64,000 nucleotides of DNA from an uncultured Verrucomicrobiae bacterium (GTDB taxonomy: Bacteria; Verrucomicrobiota; Verrucomicrobiia; Limisphaerales; UBA11358). Positions 3,920-52,156 of the stretch are shown here, in pieces. The notes beneath the pieces were generated by a model. That model did no database searches and was not told the origin of the DNA. It was given only the letters and a program-made list of their open reading frames with translations. Location: the NCBI GenBank assembly GCA_963714695.1, contig CAVQPQ010000003.1:692493-756492 (forward strand). The letters run 5' to 3'. The position numbers and the translations under genes were made by a program. The number at the start of each line of letters is the position of its first letter. Position 1 is the stretch's first letter.

Positions 3920-3922
3920 ATA

Positions 3923-5845: not shown

Positions 5846-5863
5846 TCCAGTTCGGTCAGCGGA

Positions 5864-31131: not shown

Positions 31132-32445
31132 ATGGATATTGCATTTAAGAACATATCAAAAATCAAATTCGAAGGCCCGAAATCCAAGAATCCGCTGGCC
31201 TTCAAACATTACAACCCCGCCGAAATCGTCGAAGGCAAAACGATGAGCGATCATCTGCGCTTCTCGGTCGTCTATTGGCACACGTTTCGCGGCACCGGCT
31301 CCGACCCGTTCGGTGTCGGCACCGCCGTCCGTCCGTGGGACGACGGCTCCAATTCGGTGGCCAATGCTGAAAACCGCGCGCGGGTCGCCTTCGAGTTCAT
31401 CGAGAAGCTCGGCGCGCCATTCTACGCCTTTCATGACCGCGATGTCGCGCCGGAAGGCCGGACGTTGGGCGAGACCAACAAAAATCTCGACGCCGTCGTC
31501 AAGGTCCTGAAAGCCGAACAGAAGCGCACCGGCGTCAAACTGCTCTGGGGCACGGCCAACCTGTTTTCCAATCCGCGCTTCATGCACGGCGCGTCCACGA
31601 GTTGCAACGCCGACGTGTTCGCCTTTGCCGCCGCGCAGGTGAAGAAGGCGCTGGAAGTCACCCATGAACTGGGCGGCGCCGGCTACGTTTTCTGGGGCGG
31701 GCGCGAAGGGTATTCCACCTTGTGGAACACCAACATGAAGCGCGAGCTGGAACATCTCGCCAAGTTTTTGCACCTGGCCGTGGACTACAAAAAGAAGCTC
31801 GGTTTCAAGGGCCAGTTTTACATCGAGCCGAAGCCGAAGGAACCGACCAAGCATCAATACGATTCCGACGCCGCCGCGTGCCTGAACTTCCTGCGCGAAT
31901 ACGATCTGATGGGCGATTTGAAGCTGAATATCGAGACCAATCACGCGACCTTGGCCGGGCACTCCATGCAACACGAACTGGAAGTGGCGGGTTCGGCGGG
32001 TGCGCTGGGTTCGGTGGACGCCAACACCGGCGACGAATTGATCGGCTGGGACACCGACCAGTTCCCCACCAGCATTTATCTGACGACGCAGATCATGCTG
32101 ACGATCCTCAAATACGGCGGGTTCACCACCGGCGGCTTGAATTTTGACGCCAAGGTGCGGCGCGAGAGTTTCGAGCCGGTGGATTTGTTCCATGCCCACG
32201 TTGGCGGCATGGACGCCTTCGCGCGCGGGTTGAAGATCGCCGCCGCCATTCGCAAGGACGGACGCTTGGCGGAGTTTGTGAAGGAGCGTTACGCCTCATG
32301 GGATTCGGGCCTCGGCGCGAAAATCGAGTCCGGCAAGTGTAATTTCACCGACCTCGAAGCCTACATGCTCAAGAAAGGTGAAGTGACCGGCAACGTCAGT
32401 GGTCGCCAGGAATTCCTGGAGAACCTCATTAATGAATTCATCTGA
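31132..32445 (+). CDS. xylA: xylose isomerase
   Basis: 437-aa ORF with class II XylA signatures ([43 protein letters not shown]). Confidence 0.95.
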
Positions 32446-32781: not shown

Positions 32782-33167
32782 AAGGGTTCATAGGAAGGAC
32801 GAGCGTAAACACCAACTCCATGCCGTATAGGACAAACGTCGTGCCTGTCTCTGAAATCCAAGCAGCCTCCGTTTCAGAAATAATGGTCGCTGCCACGAAT
32901 TGTCACCCACCAATGAGTGGTCTCTTTGAAGATGGAGACAGGCGCGACGCCTGTCCTACGCACCTGATCGCACGTGCAACACAGCCTTTGACTGCATGGA
33001 TACGGCTGGATTTTACACGCCAACCCGATTAATCTGGTTTATCAGCATTGATAATCAATTTCGTTAGCAATAATTTAAATCTTGATTCAACCCCGCAATT
33101 TTGCTTGAGTGCAAAGCGGAGCTTATGTCGAGATTGGGACGACATCCGCGCCAAGCCAGGCAACAAT

Positions 33168-35577: not shown

Positions 35578-35864
35578 ACCGTTCGTGTGATTTTCGCCTT
35601 CGTCTGGCTTCGGCGTGACAAGCGTGTTGTTCGCGGTTTGAAAAGTAGGGCGGGCATCTTGCCTGCCCATTGGAACGGCTTGCGCCGGTTATTCCCCCTG
35701 TCCAGACAAGCTGGAAGCACTGTCCTACGCTCTCAGCGCCTTCGCGTTAATAATTATTGCGGCTGAGGCTCAGGAATGGCATCCAACCAGGAAAACCAGC
35801 CTCAATTCTGCGATTGGATTCCATTGCCAAAATCGCGGGGTTCGTCTAAAAATTGGGAACCAGC

Positions 35865-38756
35865 ATGAAAACATTTCTCAAACACTCGATTTTAACCGCC
35901 ATGGTTGTGGCCAATGGCTGGATCTTTACAGCCACGGCTGCCGAATTTTTCCAAGATATTCCGGCGCCAACCCAGCCGGCGAAGCCAACCTTGTTGACCG
36001 AGCCGAGCCAGTCGGCGATACCGGCCGAGCCAACAGCTTCCGAAAAACTCGCGGATGGCATTATTGTTCCCCTCAAGGACACCTTCCTGAAAGTGGAAAT
36101 CTATGGCGACAATGTGGTGCGCATCGCGTGCGCGAAGGACCGTGCGTTCTTCGCCCGCCAGAGCGTGATGACGGAACCGAAGCGCTCTGTCAAAACCGAC
36201 TGGTCGTTGAAGACCGAAAATGGCGAATCCGTTCTTTCCACCGCCAAACTCCAGGTTCATGTGAATTTGGCAACCGGCGCGGTTTCATTTTTCGATACCA
36301 AGGACCGGCCCATTCTGGCTGAAACGGCCGATGGCCGGACGATAACACCCGCCGAAGTGCAGGGCGAACAAACCTTCCACGTGCGCCAGCAGTGGGAGCC
36401 AAATGCCGATGAATCGCTTTACGGCCTTGGCCAGCGTCAAATCGGCATCATTGACATCAAGGGCTGGGACCTCGATTTGTGGCAGCACAACACGCACGTC
36501 GTCGTGCCGTTTTTGGTATCGAGCCGCGGTTACGGCGTGCTGTGGGACAATCTTTCTTTTACGCGCTTCGGCAACCTGCGTGAATTCGGGCCCATCCCCG
36601 CCAATTGCCTGACGGACGCTTCAGGCCAGCCCGGCGGCCTCACGACCGGCACGTTCACCATGGGCAATCCTGATCAGTTGGAAGACTCGCATGCCACCAC
36701 CAATCTCTCCTTCATCTCCAAAGACCGCACCCGGGTCTGGCATCGCTGGGAAGGCGAAATTGTCCCGCCCACCACCGGTGATTATCAAATCAAGACCTAT
36801 TCCAACGGACGCATTAAAATGTGGCTGGATGGAAAAGTGGTCATTGACCACTGGCGGCAGGGCTGGCTGACGGAAAACGATCAAATAAAAGTCCGGTTGG
36901 AGGCCGGACACCATTATGCCATCAAGCTCGAATATGGCGGCGACGAGGCGACGACGATGCAGTTGACCTGGAAAACACCCGACCCGGACCAGAACACCTC
37001 CCTGTGGTCCGAGGTTGCCGACGGCGAGGATTATTATTTTGTCTATGGCCCGACACTGGATCAAGTCGTTGCCGGTTTCCGCCAGTTGACCGGCCAGGCT
37101 GCAATGATGCCGGAATGGGCATTCGGCTTGTGGCAATCGCGCCAGCGTTACGAAACCGCCCAGCAAAGCCTCGATGTCGTTAAAGAATATCGCCGTCGCG
37201 CCATTCCTTTCGACGACATCGTTCAAGACTGGCAATACTGGAAGCCCAATGCGTGGGGTTCCCATTCCTTCGATACGAACCGCTTTCCGGACCCGGTGGG
37301 CTGGCTCAAGGCCCTGCATGATCTGCACACGCATGTCATGATCTCCGTCTGGGGCAAATATTACAGCGGCACCACCAACTTCGACACGATGTTGAAGGCC
37401 GGTTTCCTTTATCAGCCCAATCTCAAGGAGGGCATCTCGGACTGGATCGGCTATCCCTATACCTACTATGACGCCTTCAACCCGGCCGCCCGCAAACTCT
37501 TCTGGTCGCAAATGAACACCGGGCTGTTCAGCAAGGGCATTGACGCTTGGTGGATGGATGCCAGCGAGCCGGACATGACACCGTCGCCGCCGACGCTCGA
37601 AGGACAGCGCACACACATGAATCCGACGGCAATGGGCACGGCGTCGCGGGTGATGAATGGTTATCCACTGATGAACAGCCTGGCGGTTTATGACGGTCAA
37701 CGCAGCGTGAAACCCAACCAGCGCGTTTTCATCCTCACGCGTTCCGGCTTCGCCGGAACCCAGCGTTATGCCGCCGCCACCTGGTCCGGTGACGTTTCTT
37801 CGACTTGGACCGCCTTGAGAAAACAGATTCCCGCCGGCCTGGGATTCTGCCTCTCCGGCGTGCCGTATTGGACCACCGACAGCGGCGGGTACACCATGGA
37901 ATCACGGTTCTCCGCGGAGAATCAGAAACCGGAAGACGCGGAAGAATGGCGGGAGCTGAACACGCGCTGGTTCCAGTTTGCCACCTTCTGCCCGTTGACG
38001 CGTTTGCATGGCGAATTAAAACCGCGCGAGCCGTGGACCTTTGGCGGCGACTCGCATCCGGCTTATCAAACCATTGTCAAATTTGACAATCTGCGCTACC
38101 GGATGCTGCCTTACGTCTATTCGCTCGCCGGCGAAGTGACCCAGGACGGCGGCACGATAATGCGCCCGCTGGTCATGGATTTCCAAAACGACGCACAGGC
38201 CCGCGCCATCACCGATGAATATATGTTTGGTCCGGCGTTCCTCGTCGCGCCCGTCACCACCTACCAGGCGCGCAGCCGCAGTGTCCATCTACCGCCCACA
38301 AGCGGCGACTGGTATGACTTCTGGACTGGCGCACACACTGCGGGCGGACAAACCATTGACGCCCAAGCGCCCTACGACGCATTGCCGCTGTTCATCCGCG
38401 CCGGGTCCATCATTCCGTTCGGTCCGGAACTGCAATACACCGGCGAAAAATCCGCCGACCCGATCACGCTTTATGTTTATGCGGGCGCTGACGGCGCGTT
38501 CACGCTCTACGAAGACGACGGCCTGACCTACGGCTACGAGAAGGGCGCCTTTGCGCGTATTCCGATTCATTGGGATGACGCTGCCAAGACGCTGGCCATT
38601 GGCAAACGCGCCGGCAAATTCCCCGGCATGCTGGACAAACGCACCTTCAACATCGTGCTGGTCGCCAAGGAAAAGCCGGCCGGCTTTTCCTTCACCCCCA
38701 AGGTGGATCAAACCGTCACTTATCTTGGCAAAGAACTGAAGGTGAAGTTTGAATGA
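35865..38756 (+). CDS. GH31 alpha-xylosidase/alpha-glucosidase with PA14 insert
   Basis: From the ATG at 35865 there is a signal peptide. A PA14-like insert is present (GEIVPPTTGDYQIKTYSNGRIKMWLDGKVVIDHW). GH31 motifs are KGIDAWWMDASEP (nucleophile region) and ATWSGDVSSTW. Confidence 0.9.
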   Translation: MKTFLKHSILTAMVVANGWIFTATAAEFFQDIPAPTQPAKPTLLTEPSQSAIPAEPTASEKLADGIIVPLKDTFLKVEIYGDNVVRIACAKDRAFFARQSVMTEPKRSVKTDWSLKTENGESVLSTAKLQVHVNLATGAVSFFDTKDRPILAETADGRTITPAEVQGEQTFHVRQQWEPNADESLYGLGQRQIGIIDIKGWDLDLWQHNTHVVVPFLVSSRGYGVLWDNLSFTRFGNLREFGPIPANCLTDASGQPGGLTTGTFTMGNPDQLEDSHATTNLSFISKDRTRVWHRWEGEIVPPTTGDYQIKTYSNGRIKMWLDGKVVIDHWRQGWLTENDQIKVRLEAGHHYAIKLEYGGDEATTMQLTWKTPDPDQNTSLWSEVADGEDYYFVYGPTLDQVVAGFRQLTGQAAMMPEWAFGLWQSRQRYETAQQSLDVVKEYRRRAIPFDDIVQDWQYWKPNAWGSHSFDTNRFPDPVGWLKALHDLHTHVMISVWGKYYSGTTNFDTMLKAGFLYQPNLKEGISDWIGYPYTYYDAFNPAARKLFWSQMNTGLFSKGIDAWWMDASEPDMTPSPPTLEGQRTHMNPTAMGTASRVMNGYPLMNSLAVYDGQRSVKPNQRVFILTRSGFAGTQRYAAATWSGDVSSTWTALRKQIPAGLGFCLSGVPYWTTDSGGYTMESRFSAENQKPEDAEEWRELNTRWFQFATFCPLTRLHGELKPREPWTFGGDSHPAYQTIVKFDNLRYRMLPYVYSLAGEVTQDGGTIMRPLVMDFQNDAQARAITDEYMFGPAFLVAPVTTYQARSRSVHLPPTSGDWYDFWTGAHTAGGQTIDAQAPYDALPLFIRAGSIIPFGPELQYTGEKSADPITLYVYAGADGAFTLYEDDGLTYGYEKGAFARIPIHWDDAAKTLAIGKRAGKFPGMLDKRTFNIVLVAKEKPAGFSFTPKVDQTVTYLGKELKVKFE

Positions 38757-38796
38757 TGGGTTAATCCCGATTTTTTATTGTTTTGGAAAGAGAACC

Positions 38797-41037
38797 ATGA
38801 AATTCATCGTTCGCACCCTGCGTCATTCACCCGTTGTCATGGCGTTGGCCCTGCTGGGACTGGGAACCGTTTGTGGAACCCTGCGCGCCCAGAATCAGCC
38901 GCCCAAAGACTCGTCAGTCCAAGAGCCGCCGCCGCTTTATCTCGACACCAATCAGCCCATTGACAAGCGCGTCGAGGATCTGTTGAGCCGCATGACGCTG
39001 GAGGAGAAAATATCCCTGGTTCATGGCGATTCGAAGTTCACCACTCCCGCGATCCCACGGCTGGGCGTTCCCGTCCGCTGGCTTTCCGACGGCCCGCACG
39101 GTGTGCGTGAAGACGTCGGCCCGTTCAATTGGAAGCCCGCCGGGCACACGGACGATTATGCCACCTATATGCCGGCCTTAAGCTCTCTGGGTTCGACCTG
39201 GAACCTCGATCTGGCAACCGCCTACGGCAACGTGCTGGGCCAGGAATCCCGGAAGCGCGGGAAAGACATCATTTTGGGTCCGATTGCCGACATCGTGCGC
39301 ACCCCGCTGTGCGGCCGGGTCTATGAATACTTCGGCGAAGATCCGTTCCTGAACGCGCGCATGTCGGTGAACTATATCCGCGGCGTGCAAACCAATGACG
39401 TGGCGGCCTGCATCAAGCACTTTGCCGGCAACAATCAGGAACTGGGCCGGGCCTCGGTGAACATGGACATGACTGAACGCACGTTGCGGGAAATCTACCT
39501 GCCGCCGTTCGAAGCGGCCATCAAAGAGGCCGGGGTGTGGACGGTCATGGGCGCGTACACCAAATTCCGCGGCGAGCACTGCGCCTACAGCGATTATCTG
39601 ATCAACAAAATCCTCAAGGGCGAATTCGGTTTCCCGGGGCTGGTCATGTCGGATTGGGGCGGCACCTACAACACCGGTGAAGCCGTCCTTGGCGGGCTGG
39701 ACCTGGAAATGGGCACGCTGCTGCCCGGCACGGAAACAGAAATGCCCTATGACGATTACTACCTGGCCAATCCGTTCCTCGAAGGCATCCGCAATGGGAA
39801 GTATCCCGTGTCGCTTCTGGATGACAAGGTGCGGCGCAATCTGCGCGTCATGTTCGGCACGCATGTTTTCGACCAGCGCAAACCCGGCTCGCTCAACACG
39901 CCGGCGCACCAGGCCACCGCGCAACGCATTGCCGAAGAATCCATCGTCCTGCTGAAGAACCAGGACAACCTCCTCCCACTCGATGTTTCCCAAATCAATT
40001 CGCTTGCGGTCATTGGTGAGAACGCCGTGCATCACCACGCCACCGGCCTGTTTGGCGCCGGCGTCAAGACCCTGCACGAAATCACGCCGCTGGACGGTAT
40101 CTTGCGACGCGCGGGCACCAACATGAATATTTCCTACTCGATGGGTTACAACGAACGCGGTGGTTCCAACCTGATCGAGCGTGCCGTTGCTGCCGCCAGG
40201 CAGGCGGATGTTGCCATCATCATCGCGGGCTTGCATCACGCCCGCAATTTGGACGACGAAGGCTCGGACCGCACCAATCTGCATCTGCCCTTCGGCCAGG
40301 GGGAACTGATCCAGCAGGTCGTCAAAGCCAATCCCCGTACGGTGGTGGTTTTGATTTCGGGGCCGGCCATCGAAATGGATCCGTGGCTCGGAAAGGTTCA
40401 GGCCGTCCTACAGGCTGGGTATCCGGGAATGGAAGGCGGCACGGCCATCGCCCGCGTGCTGTTCGGCGACGTGAACCCGTCGGGCAAGCTAACCACCACT
40501 TATCCGAAACAGCTCCTGGATTCACCGGCGCACGCGCTGGGCACCTATCCCGGCACGCACGGCAAGCTTTTCTACAAGGAAGGCCTGCTGGTCGGCTACC
40601 GCTGGTTTGATGCGAAAGACATCGAACCCGAGTTCCCGTTCGGATTCGGTTTGAGCTACACCACGTTTGAATATTCCAACCTGAAACTCGTTCCCGGCCA
40701 GGACACCAACAGCCCGGTGGTGACGGCCGAATTTGACATTGCCAACACCGGCGCGCGCGCTGGCGCCGAGGTGGCGGAACTTTACATCCATCAGGACCAT
40801 CCGAGCCTGCCGCGGCCGCTGAAGGAACTGAAAGGTTTTACAAAGATTTCCCTGAAACCGGGCGAAACCAAGACCGTCTCCATCCCGCTCGACCCGCGCG
40901 CCTTCGCGTATTACGACCCGGCGAAAACCGGCTGGATCTCCGAAGCCGGTGATTTCAAGATTTTGGTTGGCAGCAGCTCGCGGGATATCCGCTTGCAAGA
41001 CACCTTCCACCTGGCGCAAACCGCGGTCGAGAAATAA
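38797..41037 (+). CDS. GH3 beta-glucosidase (BglX-like)
   Basis: From the ATG at 38797 there is a signal peptide. GH3 motifs are KHFAGNNQE and GLVMSDWGG (nucleophile Asp). A C-terminal Fn3-like domain is present (VELYIHQDHPSLPRPLKELKGFTKISLKPGETKTVSIPL). Confidence 0.9.
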   Translation: MKFIVRTLRHSPVVMALALLGLGTVCGTLRAQNQPPKDSSVQEPPPLYLDTNQPIDKRVEDLLSRMTLEEKISLVHGDSKFTTPAIPRLGVPVRWLSDGPHGVREDVGPFNWKPAGHTDDYATYMPALSSLGSTWNLDLATAYGNVLGQESRKRGKDIILGPIADIVRTPLCGRVYEYFGEDPFLNARMSVNYIRGVQTNDVAACIKHFAGNNQELGRASVNMDMTERTLREIYLPPFEAAIKEAGVWTVMGAYTKFRGEHCAYSDYLINKILKGEFGFPGLVMSDWGGTYNTGEAVLGGLDLEMGTLLPGTETEMPYDDYYLANPFLEGIRNGKYPVSLLDDKVRRNLRVMFGTHVFDQRKPGSLNTPAHQATAQRIAEESIVLLKNQDNLLPLDVSQINSLAVIGENAVHHHATGLFGAGVKTLHEITPLDGILRRAGTNMNISYSMGYNERGGSNLIERAVAAARQADVAIIIAGLHHARNLDDEGSDRTNLHLPFGQGELIQQVVKANPRTVVVLISGPAIEMDPWLGKVQAVLQAGYPGMEGGTAIARVLFGDVNPSGKLTTTYPKQLLDSPAHALGTYPGTHGKLFYKEGLLVGYRWFDAKDIEPEFPFGFGLSYTTFEYSNLKLVPGQDTNSPVVTAEFDIANTGARAGAEVAELYIHQDHPSLPRPLKELKGFTKISLKPGETKTVSIPLDPRAFAYYDPAKTGWISEAGDFKILVGSSSRDIRLQDTFHLAQTAVEK

Positions 41038-41879: not shown

Positions 41880-43787
41880 TCATTTCTCCGCTGCGAACAC
41901 GCTGTAACTGTGAGGCAGCAGATGCACGTGGAAGGAAACTCGGTTGGCGCCGTTTTGCCACCGGCCTTCACCCGAGGCCTCAGCGGTGATTCCCTCGCCC
42001 GTGACCAGATTGCGCAAATTGGCGAATTCCCCGGCCACCGAGACAGTCACGTCGGTTTCCGCGGGCAGATAGGATTCGACAATAAAGGTGTTGTTGTCGT
42101 AGGCAAACAGGGCGACCTGGCTGGGACCGTTCAGTCGCACGGGGAAATCCCGCATCACGTAATTTTTGATCGCCGTCGTCACCGGCACCGGCAGGTTGTA
42201 AAGGTCATTGAAATTTTCGGGAATGGTCCAGATGTAAAGGATGCCCTTGCCATACCGGTCCATGAGCAGGAGCGGATAGCCCCGGCCGCTGGCCATGGCG
42301 CGCACGAGCGCCCAGGCGTCGTTCGTGAAGAAATCAATTTCCGGGAACAGGACATCGGCATTTGTTTCGCCGCCGATGTTCCGACCATTGCCGGAGCCGA
42401 AACCGCTGGTATATTGATGCGCGAGCACTTTGCGATCGGTGTATCGCACCTCGACGATGTCCTCGATTCCCTTGCCTTGCAACGCGCGCAGCAGGCCGGA
42501 GGTAATGATGACGGATTTGCCGGCCGCCAACTGGCCTTTGATTTTGGCGACGATGCCGGGATCAAATTTGGCCGATTCGGTCAACAGCACCAGGTTTGCA
42601 TTCGTCGGGAAAACGGGATGAAGGTCAATCGGAATGCCGATCATGCCAAAATAATTGTGCAGGAAATCCTCGCCGGTGGATTGATACGGTTTGTAGCATT
42701 GGATGCCAATGGGGTTGCCGAGCTGGCCGAGAAACGTGTCCACCTGTTCCAGGGAATAACCAGCGACCCGGGCCATTGTGGGATTGGTTAATCCCGCCGG
42801 AGCATTGGATCGGCAAGACTGCAACATTTGATCATAGTCGAAGCTCGTGTGAATGCTTTGCCAGTTGGTGCGGTCGCCGGCGCGGATGGATTGCAGCATG
42901 GCCGTCCAATTGAACAGCATCATTTCCGGCGCCTTGGCAAACATCGTGTCCCAAAGCTGTTCGGCGTAGCGGTCCACGTACCGCACGCTGAAGGTGTCCA
43001 CCCAGCCACCGCCGTTGCGGCCCGGCGCGATGTTCTCGAAGTAACGGAAAATCTGGTAGCTCTCATACGGCTGCAGGTTCTGGTCGGTGGTTTCCGGATC
43101 GCGCGTTTCCGTGCCGGTGTAGATGCCGTCGAAAATCCTGGGTTCCTGGTCAAGGTCATAGCCTGAACCCTGGAAATGTTCGTACCAATTGGGAAATTTG
43201 ACGACCATCTTGACCCTGGGGTTGACCGCCCTGGCCGGTTTGACCACCAGGTTTTTGGCGGCGTGGCGCATCAGGTCCAGCCGGAATTGGGTCCAGCTCT
43301 TTTTTCCCTTGGCCGCGATGTCCGAATCAGATTTGGTAGTGACGAAGAAAAAATCGTCCTGGATGACCTCGTCAAAATGCCGGGCGGCCAGTTGGGCTGC
43401 ATTTTTGACAAATTCGCGGTCCTTGGGATCGGTGTAACAGAAGGAGCGGAACTGGCCGTTACCGCCGTCCGACAATGCCATGCCGCCGGCCACTTTAACG
43501 CCGCGGTCCACAAAAAACTTTTTCACCCGCTCCAGCAGATCGTCGCCGGCCAGCTCCCGGTTGCGCTGCACCTCGATATAGACCTTGTCCACCTTCAACT
43601 GGCTGCTGATGCGCCTCCAGTTATTGCTCAGGGTTCTCGGATTCTCGAAGGCTCGAACCGCGCCCACCGGAATGTAAATGGCGACATCGAAGTTGGTGTA
43701 GTTGCCGGCGAGACAACCCGTGGCCGGAAGTGCGAGAGCACAGAGCAATCCCCGGAGCAGGGAAGGAAATCCAAATCGGTTTTTCAT
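41880..43787 (-). CDS. secreted protein of unknown family (paralog A), candidate glycoside-hydrolase-like
   Basis: 635-aa ORF with a signal peptide (LLRGLLCALALPATGCLAG). By eye it is about half identical over its full length to 50252-52156. Shared blocks include DDFFF, KSWTQFRL, KFPNWYEH, FDGIYTGTETR, PGRNGGGWVD, VIITSGLLRALQ, TNDAWALV, LFAYDN.TFIVES and HSY.VFAAEK. It lies 113 nt downstream of a GH2 gene. Confidence 0.8.
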   Translation of the reverse strand: MKNRFGFPSLLRGLLCALALPATGCLAGNYTNFDVAIYIPVGAVRAFENPRTLSNNWRRISSQLKVDKVYIEVQRNRELAGDDLLERVKKFFVDRGVKVAGGMALSDGGNGQFRSFCYTDPKDREFVKNAAQLAARHFDEVIQDDFFFVTTKSDSDIAAKGKKSWTQFRLDLMRHAAKNLVVKPARAVNPRVKMVVKFPNWYEHFQGSGYDLDQEPRIFDGIYTGTETRDPETTDQNLQPYESYQIFRYFENIAPGRNGGGWVDTFSVRYVDRYAEQLWDTMFAKAPEMMLFNWTAMLQSIRAGDRTNWQSIHTSFDYDQMLQSCRSNAPAGLTNPTMARVAGYSLEQVDTFLGQLGNPIGIQCYKPYQSTGEDFLHNYFGMIGIPIDLHPVFPTNANLVLLTESAKFDPGIVAKIKGQLAAGKSVIITSGLLRALQGKGIEDIVEVRYTDRKVLAHQYTSGFGSGNGRNIGGETNADVLFPEIDFFTNDAWALVRAMASGRGYPLLLMDRYGKGILYIWTIPENFNDLYNLPVPVTTAIKNYVMRDFPVRLNGPSQVALFAYDNNTFIVESYLPAETDVTVSVAGEFANLRNLVTGEGITAEASGEGRWQNGANRVSFHVHLLPHSYSVFAAEK

Positions 43788-43900: not shown

Positions 43901-46813
43901 TTAGTGCACCGCCACCGCCGGACGCAACGGAGCAGCTTGGGCTTGGAGCGCCAGCACCTTCCGCGACAGGTCTGCCGACGTCGCGGTCAGCAAAATCTCG
44001 CCAGGTTGCCGGGCAGATTGCACAATCACCTGCGCCAGACCGTTGAAGACGCTCCGCTTCCATACCGGCAACTCGGGTTTTTCCTGGAACAGCAGTGTAA
44101 CCCCCTTGTTGACACCTCCGGCACCGGCACCATTCGCGACCGCCACGGCGATGGTGTTCGTGCCGGGATGCAGGAAGCGTTTGACATCAAAACTCGGGGT
44201 CGCCTGCCAGTCATGCGACTCGCCGGCCATCTGCCCGTTCACATAAACCCAGCCTTCATCGTCAATCATGCCGAAACTCAGCTTGACGGTTTCCACCGCA
44301 AGATCCTGTTCCGACACGGTGACGTGGCCGCGAAAGACGCCGTTTTCTCCTTCCACCAGCGGGCCGGAGTCCGAACGCACGTTGTCTTTTTCCCATGCCG
44401 AGTCGTCGAAATTCACGCCGAGCTCAGGAAGGTTTGCCAGGCGCGCGTTGGGAATCCGGGTCCATTTCCAATCGGTCACCAGAGTGGAATGAACCGGCCA
44501 TTTTGCCAGATAGATATCCGGCTCGTGTGATGACGGATCGCCGTTGCCGACACCGATGATTTTGCCGGCGCCTTGAATCGCGAAGGTGATTTCGTTGCCG
44601 GCGATGGGCACTCTCCGTCCGCGGGCATCGTTGACCTGGACGGTGATGATCGAAACGTCCTCACCATCAGCTTTGATGATCGCGCGGTCCGGAATGAGCT
44701 GGATGGCCGCCGGCTCGCCGGTGGTATCAACCTGGTCTTTGGCGATTTCCTTGCCGTCTTTGTAGCCACGCGCCAGCAGCGTGCCCGGTTCGTATTTCAC
44801 CTTCCACTCCAAGTGCCCATTTTTCTCCATTGTCTTCCGGCCCAAACTCAGGCCGTTCAGGAAGAGTTCGACCTCCTCGCAATTGCTGAAGCACTTGACG
44901 TCAATTTCCCGGCCTTCCTTGCCCGGCCAGTTCCAATGCGGGAAAATGTGGACCATGGGTTCGTCCATCCACCACGCTTTCAGATAATAAAAGCTGTCTT
45001 TGGGAAAGCCACAGGCGTCGAGAATGCCATACTGGCAGATGATGGCCGGATAACTAAAGGGGGTTTCCTCGCCGCGGTAATCGAATCCGGTCCAATAAAA
45101 CAATCCGGCAAGGTATGGTCTGGCGGCGTAGTGTTTCCAGCCAATCTCGCAGTTGCCGCCGGAATCGCCGTACTCGAGCGGTGCCATGTGGGCATTGGGC
45201 CGGTCATCGAAATAGACGCCACGGGTTCCCTGGGTGGTGGTTTCCTCGGTGCCGATCCCCGGCTGGTTGGGAAATTGGGCATGTTGATTGTCCGTGCTTT
45301 TGCCCGTGATGTAATTATATCCCATCACATCAATGACGCTGGAAATTCCCCCGCCCCAGCCTCCGCTGATGGCAACGGTGACAGGACGGGTGGGGTCAAG
45401 ATGTTTGGCCACCGCCTGCATGGTGGCAGCGATGCGGGCGCCTTTCTCGTTGCCTTCAATGCCCCACTCTTCATTGCCCATCGACCACAGGATGACGCTG
45501 GGATGGTTCCGGTCACGCAGGATCATCCGCTTGAGATGGTCGAGTTGATCTTCCGACGTTCCCATCAGCCGGTTTTCGTCGAGCACCACCATGCCCAGCC
45601 GGTCGCAAGCATCGAGCAGTTCGGGCGTGGGAGGATTGTGCGAGCAACGATAGGCGTTGCAACCAAACGTCTTGAGGCGCGCGACGCGAAAATTCAGAAG
45701 CGCATCGGGAATGGCCGCGCCTACCCCGGCATGATCCTGGTGGTTGTTGACGCCTTTCAACTCGACGTGTTTGCCATTCAGGAAAAATCCCAGGTTGGGA
45801 TCGAACCGGATCGTACGGATGCCAAAGGACGTTTCGTAGCGGTCCACGGCCGTTCCGCCCGCGCGGATTGTGGTGATGAGTTTGTACAGACTGGGCGTCT
45901 CAATGGACCAGAGTTTGGGATTGGCAACCTTCATCACGCAGGAAAATTCGCCGGTGTCCCACACCCGCAGCCCGGCTTGTTTTACCTGTCCTTGCGCGAC
46001 CGTTTTGCCGTCCGCATCCACAATGGCCTGCTCGACATCGAAGCTGGCGGCGTTGGTGCCTTCATTGACAACCGTGACCCGCGCGGTGACATCGGCGGCA
46101 TTATCCTTCACCTCGGAGGTGACGAACGTGCCATCGCGCTCGACGTGCAGCGGGCCGGTTTTGACCAGCCAGACGTGGCGATAGATGCCCGCGCCCTCGT
46201 AGAACCAGCCTTCCTCCATCGTGGCGTCCGCGCGCACGGCGATGACGTTGTTCCCGCCGTAGTTCAGGAATTCGCCGATGTTGTAGCCAAAGCTCGAATA
46301 GCCGCTTGCCTCACGACCGAGATAATGGCCGTTGACCCAGACCATCGAATCGCGGAAAACGCCATCGAACTCGACACTGATGCGCCGACCGAGATCGGAT
46401 TCGGGGAGGAAGAAGGACCTGCGATACCAGCCGACGGAGGTGTCGGGGAAATTCCGTCCAATGGACTTGTAGCCGTGGCTGTGGCTGCCCCGGCCATCAA
46501 ACGGCACTTCCACAGCCCAGTCGTGGGGCAAATCCAGCATCCGCCAAGCGCGATCGTCAAAATTGGCCGCCGCCGCCCCGTCGCCATAGCCAGTCTTGGC
46601 GAGATAGGAGAAATAACCCGTTCCGGTGTTGAAATCTTTCTGCACATCGGATGGGTGACCGAAAGCGAAGCGCCAGCCGGAGTCCATGAGCAACCGCTCG
46701 CGAACGGCTGGCGCGGCGGTTGGCGATGAAACTTGAGCTGTGATCGGCGTCAGGAGGGCGGCAACGAAAACGCTGGTTGTAACAACAAGGAGCCCATTTG
46801 ATTGTTTTTTCAT
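43901..46813 (-). CDS. GH2 beta-galactosidase-family enzyme with extra C-terminal domains
   Basis: 970-aa ORF with a signal peptide. It has a GH2 sugar-binding N-terminus (DDRAWRMLDLPHDW) and an acid/base motif (NHPSVILWSMGNEEWG). A long Ig-like/CBM-like C-terminal extension follows. Confidence 0.9.
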   Translation of the reverse strand: MKKQSNGLLVVTTSVFVAALLTPITAQVSSPTAAPAVRERLLMDSGWRFAFGHPSDVQKDFNTGTGYFSYLAKTGYGDGAAAANFDDRAWRMLDLPHDWAVEVPFDGRGSHSHGYKSIGRNFPDTSVGWYRRSFFLPESDLGRRISVEFDGVFRDSMVWVNGHYLGREASGYSSFGYNIGEFLNYGGNNVIAVRADATMEEGWFYEGAGIYRHVWLVKTGPLHVERDGTFVTSEVKDNAADVTARVTVVNEGTNAASFDVEQAIVDADGKTVAQGQVKQAGLRVWDTGEFSCVMKVANPKLWSIETPSLYKLITTIRAGGTAVDRYETSFGIRTIRFDPNLGFFLNGKHVELKGVNNHQDHAGVGAAIPDALLNFRVARLKTFGCNAYRCSHNPPTPELLDACDRLGMVVLDENRLMGTSEDQLDHLKRMILRDRNHPSVILWSMGNEEWGIEGNEKGARIAATMQAVAKHLDPTRPVTVAISGGWGGGISSVIDVMGYNYITGKSTDNQHAQFPNQPGIGTEETTTQGTRGVYFDDRPNAHMAPLEYGDSGGNCEIGWKHYAARPYLAGLFYWTGFDYRGEETPFSYPAIICQYGILDACGFPKDSFYYLKAWWMDEPMVHIFPHWNWPGKEGREIDVKCFSNCEEVELFLNGLSLGRKTMEKNGHLEWKVKYEPGTLLARGYKDGKEIAKDQVDTTGEPAAIQLIPDRAIIKADGEDVSIITVQVNDARGRRVPIAGNEITFAIQGAGKIIGVGNGDPSSHEPDIYLAKWPVHSTLVTDWKWTRIPNARLANLPELGVNFDDSAWEKDNVRSDSGPLVEGENGVFRGHVTVSEQDLAVETVKLSFGMIDDEGWVYVNGQMAGESHDWQATPSFDVKRFLHPGTNTIAVAVANGAGAGGVNKGVTLLFQEKPELPVWKRSVFNGLAQVIVQSARQPGEILLTATSADLSRKVLALQAQAAPLRPAVAVH

Positions 46814-46953: not shown

Positions 46954-49900
46954 TTATGGCAGCGGCGGACCAACTTTGATGCGATAAAACTTCACTGGCA
47001 ACGTCGCCGCATTGGTGTCCGTCCACGAGAACGGCATCGCCGGCGAATTGGTGATGGACAAAGTGCTCCAGCCCAGCAGATTTGAAGAAACCTGAATGGC
47101 ATAGTCCGGTCCCGTCTGACCGCTAACTTGGAATCCCATTTGACCACCGTTCAGCACGATCGAGGCGGCGGTTGGCTGGGTGAGCGGATTGACCATGACA
47201 GCAAAACTTTGCGTCGCGCTCATGATGGGAGAACCGTTATCGGCGACTTTGATGGTGAACGCGTTGGTCGTGTTGGCGTTGGTCACCGCAGGACGCCAGG
47301 AGAATGCGCCGGTGTTGGTATTCAACGTCGCGCTGCTAATGCCGCTCAAAAGGCTGAAGGTCAGGGTTTGCGGCGGTTGGTCGGTGTCGGTGGCGCTGGC
47401 GGTGAAGGCGACAGTCTGGCCCACATTGACCGTCTGGTTGCCGATCGGCGCCAGCACCGGAGCGGTATTGGCGGGCGGAATCAACAAATCAACGATGGTG
47501 TAGGGCGGGACGGAGACGGTAAACGAGTTCCCCAGCCCCGACACGGTGTTGGTGGAGACGGGATAGCTGGGATAGTCATTGGCGCCGACGTAATTGGTGA
47601 GGCCGAATTGATACCAAGTGCCGGAGCTGGCGAGATTCGGTCCACTGATGTTTACGGTGGCGGCAATGGTGACAAGCGGGTCCATGTTGACCAACATAAC
47701 GCCGGTTTTTCCATCCTGCCGGGTCGTGGCATGGACGCGCAATTCGGTTTGAGCGGACGTAGTGTTGAGGAACGTATCGCCGACATTGGCCAGCAGGTGT
47801 GACATCATTGCGCCGTAATAAGCGTGGCCCGGCGTCTGGTTGGCCTGAAGGATGTCATTATGCAATATCTGGTAATCCACGTTGATGATGCCGTTTTCAA
47901 TCCAAGTCAAATAGTTATCTGCGGTGTAAAGCGCCACCGGTGCGCCGGCGGCGTTCCCGGCGCCGGTTTCGGTGACGGCGATTTGCATTTGCGAGGCGTG
48001 GGCGGCACCCAACTGATTCGTCAATTCCGTTAAAGTGCTGGTAACGTTGGCGACAATCCCGGTTGATGCGGCTAGTGTGGAAGGAGTGTCACTGCCGGGA
48101 TACCAGTGTATAATAACGAAGTCCACGTTGGTGCCAACCGCTTTCAACAACGGGGTGTTATAGGAATTATTGCCGGGGCTAAATCCCACACCGCACAGGA
48201 TGGTGGGGTCCTGCGCCTTCATCACTCTGATGAATTGGACCGAATTCGTACCATAGGCAGCGGGAGAAAGCGCAGGCTGGCCGACGCGAGTAGCGGCGTT
48301 GGTCTCCGGGTAATGCAGGTCGTATTCCCAATCCTGACCAGAATAATACCCGTTGCCACCAACCTCATTGCCAATTTCCCAGTATTTGACACCCCAGTGT
48401 TTGGTATTATTGGCATAGTTCACCCACGCGGCGGCCACATTGGTGTCGCCTCCGGTCGTATTGGACGGATCGGAGCCATAATTGACGGTGATAATTGCCT
48501 GTGCGCCCGCTGGGTTGACGTCAGTATTCATAAAATTGTCAAAGCCGTCGCTCGAAATAACGTAAGCACCGTCAATGCCGGTGTTGTTTGACCAACAATA
48601 AACATCCGCATACGAACCACCCGGATAGCGAACAACTCCGATTCCGGCGGCCTTTAACAATGGAGCCACGCGCGAGTCTATCAAGTAACCATCATAAACT
48701 GCGGTGCAAACTCCCAATCCCTGCAAGGGCATTGCTGCCATCGTGTTTGAAACATTAATGGTGACACTTGTGGGCGGAAGAACGGTCACGCTGGCCACAC
48801 TGCCGGTGAAATTGCCCGAACCATTGTTCACGATGTAGTCGAATCTGAAGGCGCCAGTGCTGAATGGGGTCACAGTCAGACTCACACTGGTGGCGGTGGG
48901 AATGTTGGTCAGGCTGCCGCCGCTGCCACCGTCCGTCTGCCATTGATAGGTCAGTGGAGGATTCCCCACTGCGGGTGAAGTCAACGTGAATGGCGAACCG
49001 ATGTAAAGGGTGCTGGCGGGGGAGACGGACGGCGCGCCGACAATGATGGTAACGACGGCCACGCTGCTGGTGGCGCGACCGGTAATGTTGGTCACGATGT
49101 AGTCGAACCTGAAGGCGCCCGTGTTGGTTGGAGTCACCGTCAGACTCGCGTTGGTGGCGTTGAGAATGTTGTTCAGCGTACCGCCGCTGCCGCCGTCCGT
49201 CTGCCATTGATAGCGCAGAGGAGGATCGCCCGCCGCGGCGGAACCCAGCGTGACTGCGGCACCGATGTAATTGGTTAGGGCTGGCGAGACTGACGGCGCG
49301 CCGGCAAGGAGTACGCTGGAATTCGTTGACAAGCCGATGTCGAAAACCGCGTCATAAGTGGTGGGGCTGCCGAAGGTCATGGCGCCACCAGCAACGGGGA
49401 TAAGCGCAATTTGACCGCCCGAATAGGGGTTGCTGCCGCCGACGGCCATCGCTTCATAGCCGCTGTCGGAAGTGAGGCCGAATGACCAGGCATAAGTAGC
49501 ATTGGTCGCCATCGGCACGGCCAGGTTGGTCCATCTCAGCCAGTCGCCGTCGCTATAGGAGGCAATGGACGCGGTGTAAGTTTGCAGCAGTGTCGCCGAG
49601 GCGCCGGACACGGAAAAAATGTGGAGGTCATAAGACCCGGACGAACCGATACCGCTGTAGGAATTCAAACCGCCGGTCTTCAAGGCAATTGATGTCATTA
49701 CGTATCCCGCCGGGCTGGTCCCGGTGGTGAAGGTCTGGCCCGGCTCGCCGCCGTTATGCCAGCCGACATGATCGTCAGTGTAGTAATTCAGACCACCGGG
49801 TGAGGTTGTGTTGCCGGAGGTGCTCAACTGGGAAATGTCGTTCGGTCCCGGCGTTGGATTGGAGGCGCCCAGGTCAGTAAGGGTTACCTGAGCGTAGCCA

Positions 49901-49959
49901 ATCCCGGACATGGCGCAGGCGGCAAACATTAAAACGGTGGAACGCATGTTTTTTTTCAT
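46954..49959 (-). CDS. large secreted multidomain protein: unknown N-domain, two tandem Ig-like repeats, clan GH-A-like catalytic domain, cadherin/He_PIG-like C-terminal domain
   Basis: The signal peptide starts from the ATG at 49959 or 49947. Two ~87-aa repeats (PSVSP...PPL.YQWQTDGGSGG) occupy nt 48778-49302. A TIM-barrel-like region contains VRYPGGSYAD, KYWEIGNE (acid/base-like NE) and IAVTETG (nucleophile-like TE). The C-terminus reads NTAPVLAPIGNQTVNVGQTVAFTASATDTDQPPQTLTFSL. Confidence 0.8.
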   Translation of the reverse strand: MKKNMRSTVLMFAACAMSGIGYAQVTLTDLGASNPTPGPNDISQLSTSGNTTSPGGLNYYTDDHVGWHNGGEPGQTFTTGTSPAGYVMTSIALKTGGLNSYSGIGSSGSYDLHIFSVSGASATLLQTYTASIASYSDGDWLRWTNLAVPMATNATYAWSFGLTSDSGYEAMAVGGSNPYSGGQIALIPVAGGAMTFGSPTTYDAVFDIGLSTNSSVLLAGAPSVSPALTNYIGAAVTLGSAAAGDPPLRYQWQTDGGSGGTLNNILNATNASLTVTPTNTGAFRFDYIVTNITGRATSSVAVVTIIVGAPSVSPASTLYIGSPFTLTSPAVGNPPLTYQWQTDGGSGGSLTNIPTATSVSLTVTPFSTGAFRFDYIVNNGSGNFTGSVASVTVLPPTSVTINVSNTMAAMPLQGLGVCTAVYDGYLIDSRVAPLLKAAGIGVVRYPGGSYADVYCWSNNTGIDGAYVISSDGFDNFMNTDVNPAGAQAIITVNYGSDPSNTTGGDTNVAAAWVNYANNTKHWGVKYWEIGNEVGGNGYYSGQDWEYDLHYPETNAATRVGQPALSPAAYGTNSVQFIRVMKAQDPTILCGVGFSPGNNSYNTPLLKAVGTNVDFVIIHWYPGSDTPSTLAASTGIVANVTSTLTELTNQLGAAHASQMQIAVTETGAGNAAGAPVALYTADNYLTWIENGIINVDYQILHNDILQANQTPGHAYYGAMMSHLLANVGDTFLNTTSAQTELRVHATTRQDGKTGVMLVNMDPLVTIAATVNISGPNLASSGTWYQFGLTNYVGANDYPSYPVSTNTVSGLGNSFTVSVPPYTIVDLLIPPANTAPVLAPIGNQTVNVGQTVAFTASATDTDQPPQTLTFSLLSGISSATLNTNTGAFSWRPAVTNANTTNAFTIKVADNGSPIMSATQSFAVMVNPLTQPTAASIVLNGGQMGFQVSGQTGPDYAIQVSSNLLGWSTLSITNSPAMPFSWTDTNAATLPVKFYRIKVGPPLP

Positions 49960-50251
49960 TGAAAGACGGTTGAATGGACGTGGGAGGGTGTTGCTAAAAT
50001 TATTCACATGTTTTTACGACAAAATTTACGTTTTACCAGCATAATACATACCACATCTTGCGCTTATTTGTCAACGTAACAATCGTGGCCGATGACGTTT
50101 TTTATCGGTTTCGCAATGATTGCAAATGATGACGGAGTGTTGCGCCTGTTGGTTATATGGTTCGGGAGTCTGACAATGCCAAATCCGCCTGAGTGCCAGC
50201 CGGAGTTCATCACCCACCGTTGCAACAACCAGGAAGAATTTCGTCCGTTCG

Positions 50252-52156
50252 TTATTTCTCCGCCGCGAACACTGCGTAACTGTGCGGCGGCAGATGCACG
50301 GTGAAGGTCATGCTCGGGTCGCCGTTGCCAAACCGGCCGGAACCCTGCGCCTCCCTTTCGCCGGTGGTCACTGCGCCGGTGACCAGGTTGCGGAGCCTAG
50401 TGAACCCGCCCGCGAGGGCAACTTTCACGTCCGTTTCATCCGGCAGGAATGATTCCACGATGAATGTGTGGTTGTCGTAGGCAAAAAGGCTCACCTGGGC
50501 CAAGCCTTCGACATGCACGAAAATATCCTGCGTCAGGGCGCGCTTGATCTGGGCCAGCACCTCGGGAGGCAGATTGTAAATATCGCCGAAATTTTCCGGG
50601 AGGGTCAGAACATAAAGGAAGCCTTTGACATAACCAGCCCGAAGCAACAGCGGGTAAGGAATGCCGGCAGCGGTGCCGGAGACCAGCGCCCATGCGTCGT
50701 TGGTGATGTAATCGAGTTCGGGAATGGTGATTTCCGATTTCCCTTCGATGACGCCCCCAAAACCGCGCGGGTATTCCTTGAGCGTAATCTTTCTGTCTGT
50801 GTAACGAATCTCAGCGATGCCTTCGATGCCCCGGTTCTGCAAGGCGCGAAGCAAGCCGGATGTGATGATGACGTTTTTGCCGTTCATCAACTGCTTTTTG
50901 ATTTTACTCACGATGTTGGGATCAGCCCCGGCTGACTCGGCCAGGAAAATCGTGTGGGCTTCGGTTGGGAATTTCGGGGTCAACTCAAAGGGAATGCCGG
51001 CCATGCCCAGGTAATTCTGGATGTAGTCCTCGCCAACCGAATTGACCGGCTTGTAACTTTTCAAACCCACCGGCTGGCCGAGCTGGCCGAGAAAAGCATC
51101 CACTTGGTCGAAGGTGAATCCCGCCGCACGGGAAATCGTCGCGGGCGCCGCCGAGGTGCCGGCGTCCGGCCGGACCGAGGCCATCATTTGATCGAAATCA
51201 AAACTCGGATGCAGATCCTGCCACGCGCCGCGGTCAGAAGGCTCCATCAGCCGCTGAACCTGGCGCAGGTCGAAAAGCGTGATCTCCGGCGCTTTGGCGA
51301 AAAGCGTCAACCAGAGTTGTTCGGCATAACGATCCGCGTAACGCATGCCGCCGGTGTCCACCCAACCGCCGCCATTGCGGCCGGGGTCGGCGTTTTCGAG
51401 GTAACGAAAGATCAAATAGCCCTGGTATTGCTGGAGATGCTGGGCATTGTTGAACGGCTCGCGTGTTTCCGTGCCGGTGTAGATGCCGTCGAAATACTTC
51501 ACCCCCGCTTCCAAGTTGTAGCCCAGACCCTGATAATGTTCATACCAGTTCGGAAATTTCAGGACCACTTTCACCTTCGGATTGACCGCCTTGGCCGGCT
51601 TCACCACCAAGTCGCGAGCCACCTCGTCCATCTGCTCCAGCCGGAACTGCGTCCAGCTTTTGTCGCCTTTGGCCTTGACGCACTTATCGCACTTGCAGTT
51701 GGTGAAGAAGAAATCGTCGAGAATGATTTCATCAAACTGTCCGGCGGTGTATTCGACGACTTCCTTGAGCTTCCGGCGGTCGGCGGGCGTGCTGTAACAG
51801 AACGACTGGTAGAGGTTGCGTTCGCTGGCCACCGTCGCGATGCCGGCGGCGACGCGGATGCCCCGGCTCTCAAAAAACCGTTTGGCCGTGGCAATTGTCT
51901 CCCGGTCCGGAATGACGCCATCACGATGGGTTTCCAGATAGACCTTGTCCACCTTCAACTGGCTGCCAATGGTGTTCCAGACGTTGGAGAGCCAGACCAG
52001 ATTGGTCATTTGCCGGACTTCATAGGCGCGGCAGTAAACGGACACGACGAAGTTGCTGTAATTGCCCGCCTGGCACACGGAGGGGAACAGGAGCGCGCAC
52101 AAAAGTTTCCCGAGCAACAGTCCAGTGGAGCAGTTTCGATCCTTCATAATCATCAA
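50252..52156 (-). CDS. secreted protein of unknown family (paralog B), candidate glycoside-hydrolase-like
   Basis: 634-aa ORF with a signal peptide (LLGKLLCALLFPSVCQAG). It is collinear with paralog A along its whole length. Its start lies 19 nt downstream of the frameshifted GH2 gene. Confidence 0.8.
   Translation of the reverse strand: MMIMKDRNCSTGLLLGKLLCALLFPSVCQAGNYSNFVVSVYCRAYEVRQMTNLVWLSNVWNTIGSQLKVDKVYLETHRDGVIPDRETIATAKRFFESRGIRVAAGIATVASERNLYQSFCYSTPADRRKLKEVVEYTAGQFDEIILDDFFFTNCKCDKCVKAKGDKSWTQFRLEQMDEVARDLVVKPAKAVNPKVKVVLKFPNWYEHYQGLGYNLEAGVKYFDGIYTGTETREPFNNAQHLQQYQGYLIFRYLENADPGRNGGGWVDTGGMRYADRYAEQLWLTLFAKAPEITLFDLRQVQRLMEPSDRGAWQDLHPSFDFDQMMASVRPDAGTSAAPATISRAAGFTFDQVDAFLGQLGQPVGLKSYKPVNSVGEDYIQNYLGMAGIPFELTPKFPTEAHTIFLAESAGADPNIVSKIKKQLMNGKNVIITSGLLRALQNRGIEGIAEIRYTDRKITLKEYPRGFGGVIEGKSEITIPELDYITNDAWALVSGTAAGIPYPLLLRAGYVKGFLYVLTLPENFGDIYNLPPEVLAQIKRALTQDIFVHVEGLAQVSLFAYDNHTFIVESFLPDETDVKVALAGGFTRLRNLVTGAVTTGEREAQGSGRFGNGDPSMTFTVHLPPHSYAVFAAEK

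Follow-up and report, generated by a model that had tools for sequence, protein, structure and literature searches.

Paralogous GH42-related proteins with a rebuilt candidate active site beside xyloglucan-type glycosidase genes in an uncultured Verrucomicrobiae bacterium

Glycoside hydrolase (GH) family 42 enzymes (PF02449, PF08532 and PF08533; for example the β-galactosidases Bca-β-gal, 3TTS, and Gan42B, 4OIF) are built of three domains, a (β/α)8 barrel, an α/β domain of the trimerisation type and a β-sandwich, and the characterised members known to us are cytoplasmic. Their acid/base belongs to an Asn-Glu pair at the end of β4, their nucleophile is the Glu of an 'ME' motif on β7, and β6 carries a conserved Tyr. 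The same architecture is found in GH164 (Bs164, 6T5O), a clan GH-A family with a Glu/Glu catalytic pair. It is also found in the small family GH151 (203 members in 2022), whose α-L-fucosidase ALfuk2 (6TVK) has its nucleophile, D154, at the end of β4 and its acid/base, E235, at the end of β6 (PMC10154630). Here we analyse two genes, paralog A and paralog B, that lie in a 64,000-nucleotide stretch of contig CAVQPQ010000003.1 from an uncultured Verrucomicrobiae bacterium (assembly GCA_963714695.1), called the window below, and that encode proteins with these three domains in the GH42 order. Their family belongs to the GH42/GH151/GH164 architectural class, as a distant and re-tooled member, and is not a categorically new kind of protein. 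Our reading, to which we give a probability of roughly 0.55, is that A and B are exo-glycosidases that share an ancestor with GH42 and have a rebuilt active site, and that from the side chains of xyloglucan they take off a sugar on which GH2, GH31 and GH3 enzymes do not act. The two genes and the parts of the paralog A product are as follows.

41880-43787, minus strand: paralog A, 635 amino acids (aa) from an ATG start, by open reading frame (ORF) and translation
residues 1-27 of paralog A, minus strand: predicted signal peptide
42783-43706, minus strand (residues 28-335 of A): predicted catalytic (β/α)8 barrel, by AlphaFold2 (AF2), Foldseek, hhalign and Pfam pre-annotation
42213-42782, minus strand (residues 336-525 of A): α/β middle domain
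41883-42212, minus strand (residues 526-635 of A): C-terminal β-sandwich
50252-52156, minus strand: paralog B, 634 aa from a TTG, with three domains arranged as in A

Paralog B more likely starts at an ATG, at 52153 or 52147 (633 or 631 aa), than at the TTG. The initial annotation had described the two genes as collinear paralogs about half identical, and BLASTP agreed, aligning their products over 613 aa with 54% identity, 68% positives and 8 gaps (E = 0); all of the conserved blocks that it quoted were found, namely DDFFF, KSWTQFRL, KFPNWYEH, FDGIYTGTETR, PGRNGGGWVD, RY.DRYAEQLW, GEDF/Y, VIITSGLLRALQ, TNDAWALV, LFAYDN.TFIVES and HSY.VFAAEK. The N-terminus of each resembles a signal peptide: charged residues are followed by a hydrophobic helix (residues 9-23) and by C-x-A|G, and the predicted local distance difference test score (pLDDT) of this segment is low in the AF2 model. 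The two proteins are predicted to be, most likely, secreted or periplasmic glycoside hydrolases, and many other members of the family also carry a signal peptide, unlike the characterised GH42 enzymes.

The full-length AF2 model of paralog A, made with a 67-sequence alignment, had a pLDDT of 87.2 and a predicted template-modelling score (pTM) of 0.88, and its barrel consisted of eight β-α units, with strands β1 to β8 at residues 34-39, 68-75, 98-104, 140-144, 193-197, 221-229, 258-267 and 288-292. Foldseek searches of the PDB with this model gave full-length matches to the GH42 β-galactosidases 3tts and 4oif (E ~3e-21), the GH151 α-L-fucosidase 6tvk (E 1.5e-18, template-modelling (TM) score 0.60), the GH42 α-L-arabinopyranosidase 5xb7, and the GH164 β-mannosidase 6t5o, which had the highest TM-score among them (0.62); identity to these structures was merely 10-12%. 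The layout that had been proposed from the letters alone, a TIM barrel followed by a glutamine-amidotransferase-like (GATase-like) α/β domain and a β-sandwich as in GH42-type enzymes, is borne out by both methods. A model of the barrel by itself was less confident (pLDDT 74.7), and its matches were weak (E >= 1e-6) and mixed, comprising the C. difficile Cwp19 barrel (5oq3, TM 0.63, the top match), GH164, GH1, GH5, GH35, GH53 and pyruvate kinases, which indicates that the barrel has no close solved relative.

To compare the family with GH42 at the level of sequence profiles, GH42 genes were drawn from metagenomes by searching for the published NEYGxxCxCxxC motif as degenerate DNA, and a 31-sequence profile was built; two of the recruited genes were confirmed as GH42 by Pfam (controls 1e-145 to 1e-158). 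Aligned by hhalign, the family profile (46 sequences) matched the GH42 profile at 96.9% probability (E 1.7e-10) over 506 collinear columns that span all three domains, and control profiles for GH31, GH3, GH2, GH39, GH44, GH115 and GH74 reached at most 1.4%. The N-terminal half of the barrel (β1-β5) matched GH42 when taken alone (89.7%, E 1.9e-6), and the middle and C-terminal domains also aligned collinearly, though less strongly (E 1e-3 and 2e-4). For the C-terminal half of the barrel (β5-β8), similarity to GH42 was undetectable by this method (0.2%). These whole-profile and per-domain scores identify the family as a true but very remote relative of GH42 in which the half-barrel that bears the nucleophile has been rebuilt; to judge from the profiles, it shares an ancestor with the GH42 β-galactosidases. 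The VIITSGLL block of the middle domain, earlier described as Rossmann-like, fits this picture, because hhalign pairs GKSVIITSGLL with the GH42M motif GGTLVTT..SG. No GH42 model of Pfam matched the family at E<=10, and an insert of about 40 aa that follows the cysteine cluster of GH42 is absent from the family and, from the spacing, from GH151 too. No GH42-like ORF was present among the first 90 loci retrieved for the family.

A further feature shared with GH42 is a putative zinc site. In GH42 the metal is held by C113/C153/C155/C158 (PMC8573354), a set of four cysteines (Cys4) that occurs in a subset of that family only, and hhalign sets C117 and the CxCxxC after DDFFF column for column on these residues. 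The motif is intact in paralog B, at the following position.

51680-51697, minus strand: C151-x-C153-xx-C156 of paralog B, a putative structural zinc site together with C117 (51797-51799), from the alignment and hhalign

The putative Cys4 motif is found in B and in 40 of the 46 diverse members. Where B has TNCKCDKC, A has VTTKSDSD (T-x-S-xx-D); A and the whole clade around it have lost three of the four cluster cysteines and kept C117. The cluster is kept in all deep branches, indicating that it is ancestral in the family, and a derived clade, spread over several phyla, has T-K-x-D-x-D in its place; this clade takes in paralog A and almost every one of the 80 loci closest to A. By its sequence, paralog B is assigned to the ancestral, B-type subfamily that retains the site. 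This distribution of Cys4 means that A and B are old, subfamily-level paralogs and not the product of a recent duplication, and the pair would be a natural experiment on the loss of a structural zinc site. Loci with more than one copy recur in the family (L011, L045, L075, L076 and L090). At L004:1-3032, a contig with paralog A terminates in a degraded repeat of the same region in inverted orientation (89.8% identity with 64 gap openings, and GH_cat gene calls in fragments). This has the look of a fold-back introduced by the assembly, not of a genuine inverted duplication.

Conservation in the barrel was scored on 46 diverse members, with identities down to ~24%. D145, E227, R229, D264, W262, K197 and W165 were invariant (46/46) and D144 was present in 45 of the 46, and the invariant carboxylates were limited to D144/D145 on β4, E227 on β6 and D264 on β7. 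Their codons in paralog A are listed here.

43353-43358, minus strand: D144-D145 (DDFFF), at the end of predicted β4, where GH42 has its Asn-Glu acid/base and, in topology, GH151 its nucleophile
43107-43109, minus strand: E227 (GTETR), at the end of predicted β6, candidate acid/base as in GH151
42996-42998, minus strand: D264 (GGGWVD), at the end of predicted β7, the topological position of the GH42 nucleophile

The columns of the GH42 Asn-Glu acid/base fell exactly on D144-D145 in hhalign, a pair that was not among the acidic residues singled out in the initial annotation. Among those that were, the Glu of GTETR (E227) and the Asp of GGGWVD (D264) proved invariant, and the Glu of NWYE (E203) did not (33 E, 10 D and 3 other among the 46), so that E203 is no catalytic candidate. 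The question whether conserved Glu or Asp map to the ends of β4 and β7 is answered, by predicted strand order, with Asp at both and Glu at neither, GTETR being on β6. D264 is placed at the GH42 nucleophile position by topology, because hhalign leaves the GH42 β7 motif 'FLLME' unaligned; no invariant Glu is found on predicted β7 of the family, and in ungapped register E227 sits where GH42 has its conserved β6 Tyr. With carboxylates, Lys, Arg and Trp held invariant at the C-terminal strand ends among members only ~24% identical, the conservation is as expected for an active site rather than for one in decay.

D145 and E227 match the catalytic Asp and Glu of GH151 in position, at the ends of β4 and β6, and the two are 82 aa apart in the family and 81 aa apart (D154 to E235) in ALfuk2. 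This agreement in topology, together with near-equal spacing, favours a GH151-like retaining mechanism. GH151 has no described counterpart of the family's D144 and D264. On a more speculative note, the conserved middle-domain loop T488-N-D-x-W492 is about as far from the β6 Glu (+262) as is His503 of ALfuk2 (+268), which complements the active site of a neighbouring subunit. The 6TVK chain was not retrieved by phmmer or hmmsearch among all PDB sequences at E<=10, and the same holds for GH164, since Bs164 showed no sequence similarity to the family in PDB sequence searches at E<=10, although its fold recurs in the barrel-only search. GH164 further differs in its Glu/Glu pair, against Asp at both the β4 and β7 positions here, and the family loci have no mannan-related context.

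Beside the two genes in the window lie a GH31 gene of the xyloglucan type and further glycosidase genes, and the minus-strand order is a split GH2, paralog B, a 1017-aa repeat protein, a second GH2 and paralog A.

43901-46813, minus strand: GH2 β-galactosidase (GalA-type), directly upstream of paralog A with a 113-nucleotide (nt) gap, by Pfam GH2 domains
52176-55041, minus strand: GH2 (GalB-like), upstream of paralog B, two overlapping ORFs from a 1-nt indel, by Pfam and NCBIfam
46954-50007, minus strand: 1017-aa Ig_3/PKD-like/Big_9 repeat protein, between both GH2-paralog pairs, by Pfam
35853-38756, plus strand: GH31 with PA14, xyloglucan-type α-xylosidase, convergent with paralog A, by Pfam and PDB
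38749-41037, plus strand: GH3 exo-glycosidase, by Pfam, with sub-threshold NCBIfam matches to GH3 glucosidase, xylosidase and arabinopyranosidase
31132-32445, plus strand: xylose isomerase XylA, by NCBIfam equivalog TIGR02630 (714 bits, cutoff 533)
55286-58336, plus strand: Reg_prop/Y_Y_Y sensor histidine kinase, divergent from the GH2-paralog B operon, by Pfam
58449-59120, plus strand: LuxR-type response regulator, by Pfam
33048-35255, plus strand: 735-aa BspA-type leucine-rich-repeat (LRR_5) protein, between xylose isomerase and GH31, conserved on related contigs

Each paralog therefore stands directly downstream of a GH2 gene on the same strand (43901-46813 and 52176-55041), as had been noted before. 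The first of these matches the NCBIfam GalA equivalog at 1128 bits (cutoff 900), and its best PDB matches are β-galactosidases; the best PDB matches of the GH31 are BoGH31A (5JOU, E 2.6e-255), the α-xylosidase 7KMP and XYL31A (2XVG). Among the annotated ORFs of the window there is no endo-xyloglucanase, and orthologous loci carry GH74, GH44 or GH5. Scans for sigma-70 promoters and terminators gave nothing above chance level. The two ORFs of the split GH2 encode 754 and 236 aa, the gene is intact (954 aa) on the near-identical contigs L002 and L003, and contig L001 shares the indel. Either long-read sequencing has introduced a homopolymer error here, or the gene became a pseudogene very recently. 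The 1017-aa protein may be a surface glycan-binding protein, and another large Ig-like protein, of the Big_3_5/YDG kind, occupies a comparable position in other loci. The pair of kinase, which is of the periplasmic-propeller type, and regulator resembles a split form of the Bacteroidetes hybrid two-component glycan sensors.

To see which of these associations extend beyond the window, ORFs within 10 kb of the family gene were clustered and then annotated at 80 genome loci. GH31 was found at 13 of the loci, GH3 at 12, GH2 at 11, GH74-like proteins at 10, the Reg_prop kinase at 9, GH39 at 6, GH44 at 5 and GH115 at 4. Such GH neighbours stand beside about 30 of 77 A-type genes, and the majority of those loci are labelled Verrucomicrobiota. 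Typical arrays read GH31>GH74>family gene, Reg_prop<family gene>GH2>GH3>GH44, and GH31>family gene>GH39, and in L008 and L012 the order is GH31>GH2>GH74>family gene, with GH44 and GH3 further along. The locus L090, whose gene is B-type, reads GH31>GH3>GH74>family gene>GH5>family gene, followed by a kinase, again of the Reg_prop type, and a regulator, with gaps of ~10 nt and no GH2. The BNR/GH74-like neighbours match GH74 xyloglucanases.

The survey did not uphold the proposal of a conserved pairing with GH2, because GH2 lies within 10 kb at those 11 loci only, usually downstream and not upstream of the family gene, and is absent from L090; a GH2 upstream is therefore a trait of the window locus and not of the family. 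What is conserved, in Verrucomicrobiota only, is association with a xyloglucan cluster (GH31, GH74, GH44, GH5, GH3 and the Reg_prop kinase). Given the likeness of the GH31 to xyloglucan enzymes, the GH74 neighbours, the GalA-type GH2 and XylA, the verrucomicrobial family genes can be read as components of xyloglucan-type operons. Elsewhere the family gene stands amid housekeeping genes, as in Acidobacteriota, Opitutaceae (SecA/MetH synteny), FCPU426 and some Proteobacteria. In Acidobacteriaceae (L057, L066, L071, L083 and L087) it follows an M13 peptidase gene and genes for three lactonase-like 7-bladed β-propeller paralogs in tandem, a context that is conserved and unrelated to xyloglucan. 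Conserved contexts outside Verrucomicrobiota were set aside as housekeeping synteny, and an FGGY kinase beside the Cellulosilyticum lentocellum homologue, considered as a possible fuculokinase, is a glycerol kinase and holds no substrate hint.

From the fold, the GH42 homology, the residue conservation and the genomic association we infer catalytic roles and a substrate. The GH42 body plan of barrel, trimerisation-type domain and β-sandwich is retained, in B together with the putative Cys4 zinc site. Asp144-Asp145 stand in place of the Asn-Glu acid/base, and the second half of the barrel has diverged beyond recognition, with invariant Glu227 on β6 and invariant Asp264 on β7. Hydrolysis would proceed by retaining double displacement, with Asp145 (β4) as nucleophile and Glu227 (β6) as acid/base, as assigned to the GH151 α-L-fucosidase, and Asp144, Asp264, Lys197 and Arg229 would bind the substrate. 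Both copies would be co-transcribed with the two GH2 β-galactosidases, beside GH31, GH3, xylose isomerase and the Reg_prop kinase, and would act in exo fashion on a xyloglucan side-chain sugar left by GH2, GH31 and GH3. That the paralogs supply a side-chain activity otherwise missing from the locus, as was suggested initially, is plausible.

As to the sugar, GH31, two GH2 and GH3 are already present, GH29 and GH95 are nearly absent, and the candidate residues are GH151-like, and for these reasons α-L-fucose is our first guess, put forward with considerable reserve. Among 58 further neighbours of 20 loci rich in carbohydrate-active enzymes (CAZymes), GH29 and GH95 appeared once each and GH43, a family that includes arabinofuranosidases, twice. 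After fucose, β-galactose, which is only slightly less likely, α-L-arabinose or another side-chain sugar can be guessed at. A wider proposal, which we regard as tentative, is that these proteins form a new GH family, a sister of GH42 and GH151, in which catalysis moved from Glu(β4)/Glu(β7) to Asp(β4)/Glu(β6), that the verrucomicrobial members supply a xyloglucan side-chain activity for which soil and peat lineages have no known dedicated bacterial family, and that the A-type, without zinc, and the B-type, with it, differ in specificity. Under this proposal the activity could be an α-L-fucosidase unrelated to GH29 and GH95, or could be directed at moss-type side chains (α-L-arabinopyranose or β-galacturonic acid).

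Several points weigh against our reading that A and B are GH42-related exo-glycosidases acting on a xyloglucan side chain. Most non-verrucomicrobial members are orphans amid housekeeping genes, so that a role in xyloglucan breakdown cannot hold for the entire family; the lack of GH29 and GH95 in the 10-kb neighbourhoods counts for little; and no characterised member was found in literature on SSO3021, on new GH families of Verrucomicrobia or on GH42-like xyloglucan enzymes. The likeness to GH151 is one of fold match and residue position, and the strand positions on which it depends are read from the DSSP order of a predicted structure. Since the acid/base and nucleophile positions of clan GH-A fall on D145 and D264, a GH42-like Asp/Asp mechanism on β4 and β7 is possible as well. 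The proteins might then be β-galactosidases or α-L-arabinopyranosidases with Asp145 as acid/base and Asp264 as nucleophile, removing the Gal-β-1,2-Xyl branch of xyloglucan oligosaccharides. Such enzymes have a precedent among Firmicutes, in R. cellulolyticum, where Gal42A, encoded in a GH31-GH3-two-component-GH42 cluster, removes galactose from xyloglucan oligosaccharides (PMC4780118). L090, with GH31, GH3, GH74, GH5 and two family copies and no GH2, is among the loci that favour a β-galactosidase. The specific remote homology to GH42, with D144-D145 on the Asn-Glu acid/base, and the invariance of D264 at the end of the GH42 nucleophile strand point the same way, and α-L-arabinopyranosidases do occur within GH42 (5xb7). 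Against this, hhalign detects no likeness to GH42 in the half-barrel that would bear the nucleophile (0.2%), the conserved β6 Tyr gives way, in ungapped register, to Glu227 as an additional invariant residue, and with two bona fide GH2 β-galactosidases in the window the total of four galactosidases would be redundant. We know, moreover, of no clan GH-A family with Asp/Asp catalysis, and we consider this explanation unlikely.

The orphan members raise a different question, namely whether the family acts on a non-plant glycan (an exopolysaccharide, a cell-envelope glycan or an N-acetylhexosamine (HexNAc) glycan) and was recruited to xyloglucan clusters secondarily. The adjacent Asp-Asp at the end of β4 recalls the catalytic pair of GH84, which is likewise an adjacent Asp-Asp (GH20 uses Asp-Glu) and would here serve substrate-assisted catalysis, as in hexosaminidases; this could matter for the orphans, most of which, outside Verrucomicrobiota, have no plant-CAZyme neighbours and stand near genes for the envelope or for housekeeping, such as LptF/G, SecA, Lnt or outer-membrane-protein barrels. 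The top barrel-only fold match, Cwp19 of C. difficile, is presumably a GHL10-type cell-wall hydrolase, but it comes from the model with modest pLDDT and from weak matches mixed with generic TIM barrels. The L090 gene, packed at ~10-nt gaps among GH74, GH5, GH31 and GH3, argues for a xyloglucan-derived substrate at least for such members; HexNAc is absent from xyloglucan, and E227 and D264 would be left unexplained, so that we hold this account to be quite improbable. Still less probable is a non-catalytic role, as a carbohydrate-binding, sensor or scaffold protein in a GH42-like shell. Both canonical catalytic Glu residues of GH42 are missing, none of the members has a reported activity, and the cluster also encodes an Ig/PKD repeat protein together with an LRR protein of BspA type, all of which would suit it; it has to contend with the four carboxylates, Lys, Arg and Trp held invariant at barrel strand ends at ~24% identity, with a very large family under evident purifying selection, and with the newest Pfam, which labels the domain a GH catalytic domain.

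The status of the family in databases depends on their date. The initial annotation had recognised no named domain, and this stands for Pfam-A 2025, NCBIfam 20 and PDB sequences, in which neither single sequences nor profiles from two alignments had a match at E<=10; scanned singly, the 46 diverse members (A, B and 44 relatives) had no Pfam match at that threshold either. It does not stand for the newest Pfam, in which PF28584 (GH_cat), PF27250 (SSO3021_2nd) and PF28585 (GH_C) annotate paralog A (P0001), a protein 100% identical to the full paralog B query (P0121) and all 240 listed homologues. These accessions are newer than the Pfam copy used for our scans, and their matches were taken from precomputed annotations. 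Since they cover the family, curators have already modelled it and called it a glycoside hydrolase, and it can no longer be treated as unnamed. No CAZy family, Enzyme Commission number or publication could be linked to the three accessions in the searchable literature. The 240 listed close homologues are named 'hypothetical protein' throughout in their source records.

The family is very large, in contrast to GH151. An exhaustive HMMER search at E<=1e-3 retrieved 1384 clusters defined at 50% identity, and 361 of them also pass 1e-30; relatives are encoded in at least 598 species-representative genomes. The hosts are mainly soil and peat metagenome-assembled genomes (MAGs) of Verrucomicrobiota (Limisphaerales, Opitutaceae), Acidobacteriota and Planctomycetota, with some Proteobacteria and Myxococcota. 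The family hidden Markov model (run with --max) found no intermediate relatives across the ORFs of the retrieved loci, and paralog B had no tblastn match among 72,556 plasmids. The β-galactosidase families that Cheng 2017 recovered from soil metagenomes (PMC5342196) were considered as possible relatives and are unrelated, being a 7TMR-GGDEF protein, a DUF377 propeller and one other.

If the proteins are active glycosidases, the family would found a new CAZy family, would be a second example, beside GH151, of a GH42-type scaffold with relocated catalytic residues, and would close an annotation gap in the turnover of plant polysaccharides (xyloglucan) and in peat and soil carbon cycling. The question is directly testable, because a cultured organism, Cellulosilyticum lentocellum DSM 5427, encodes a member (WP_013655515.1). 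Like that of a Candidatus Heritagella MAG, this protein is one of the shorter members without the N-terminal signal-like segment; it has 574 aa and no signal peptide, and is encoded at L093:10001-11725 (CP002582.1). It is the one remoter member with a name other than 'hypothetical protein', being called 'permease' in UniRef, and one NCBI record names a close homologue likewise. Since it has no membrane-protein features and matches GH_cat, SSO3021_2nd and GH_C, this name is a misannotation.

Two ORFs elsewhere in the window are also worth recording. A 1074-aa ORF at 3911-7135 on the plus strand, without a Pfam match at 1e-5, overlaps a 640-aa ORF on the opposite strand, and the gene at 12998-14500 on the minus strand encodes a 500-aa protein with a nidogen-like (NIDO) domain, a type familiar chiefly from extracellular matrix proteins of animals.

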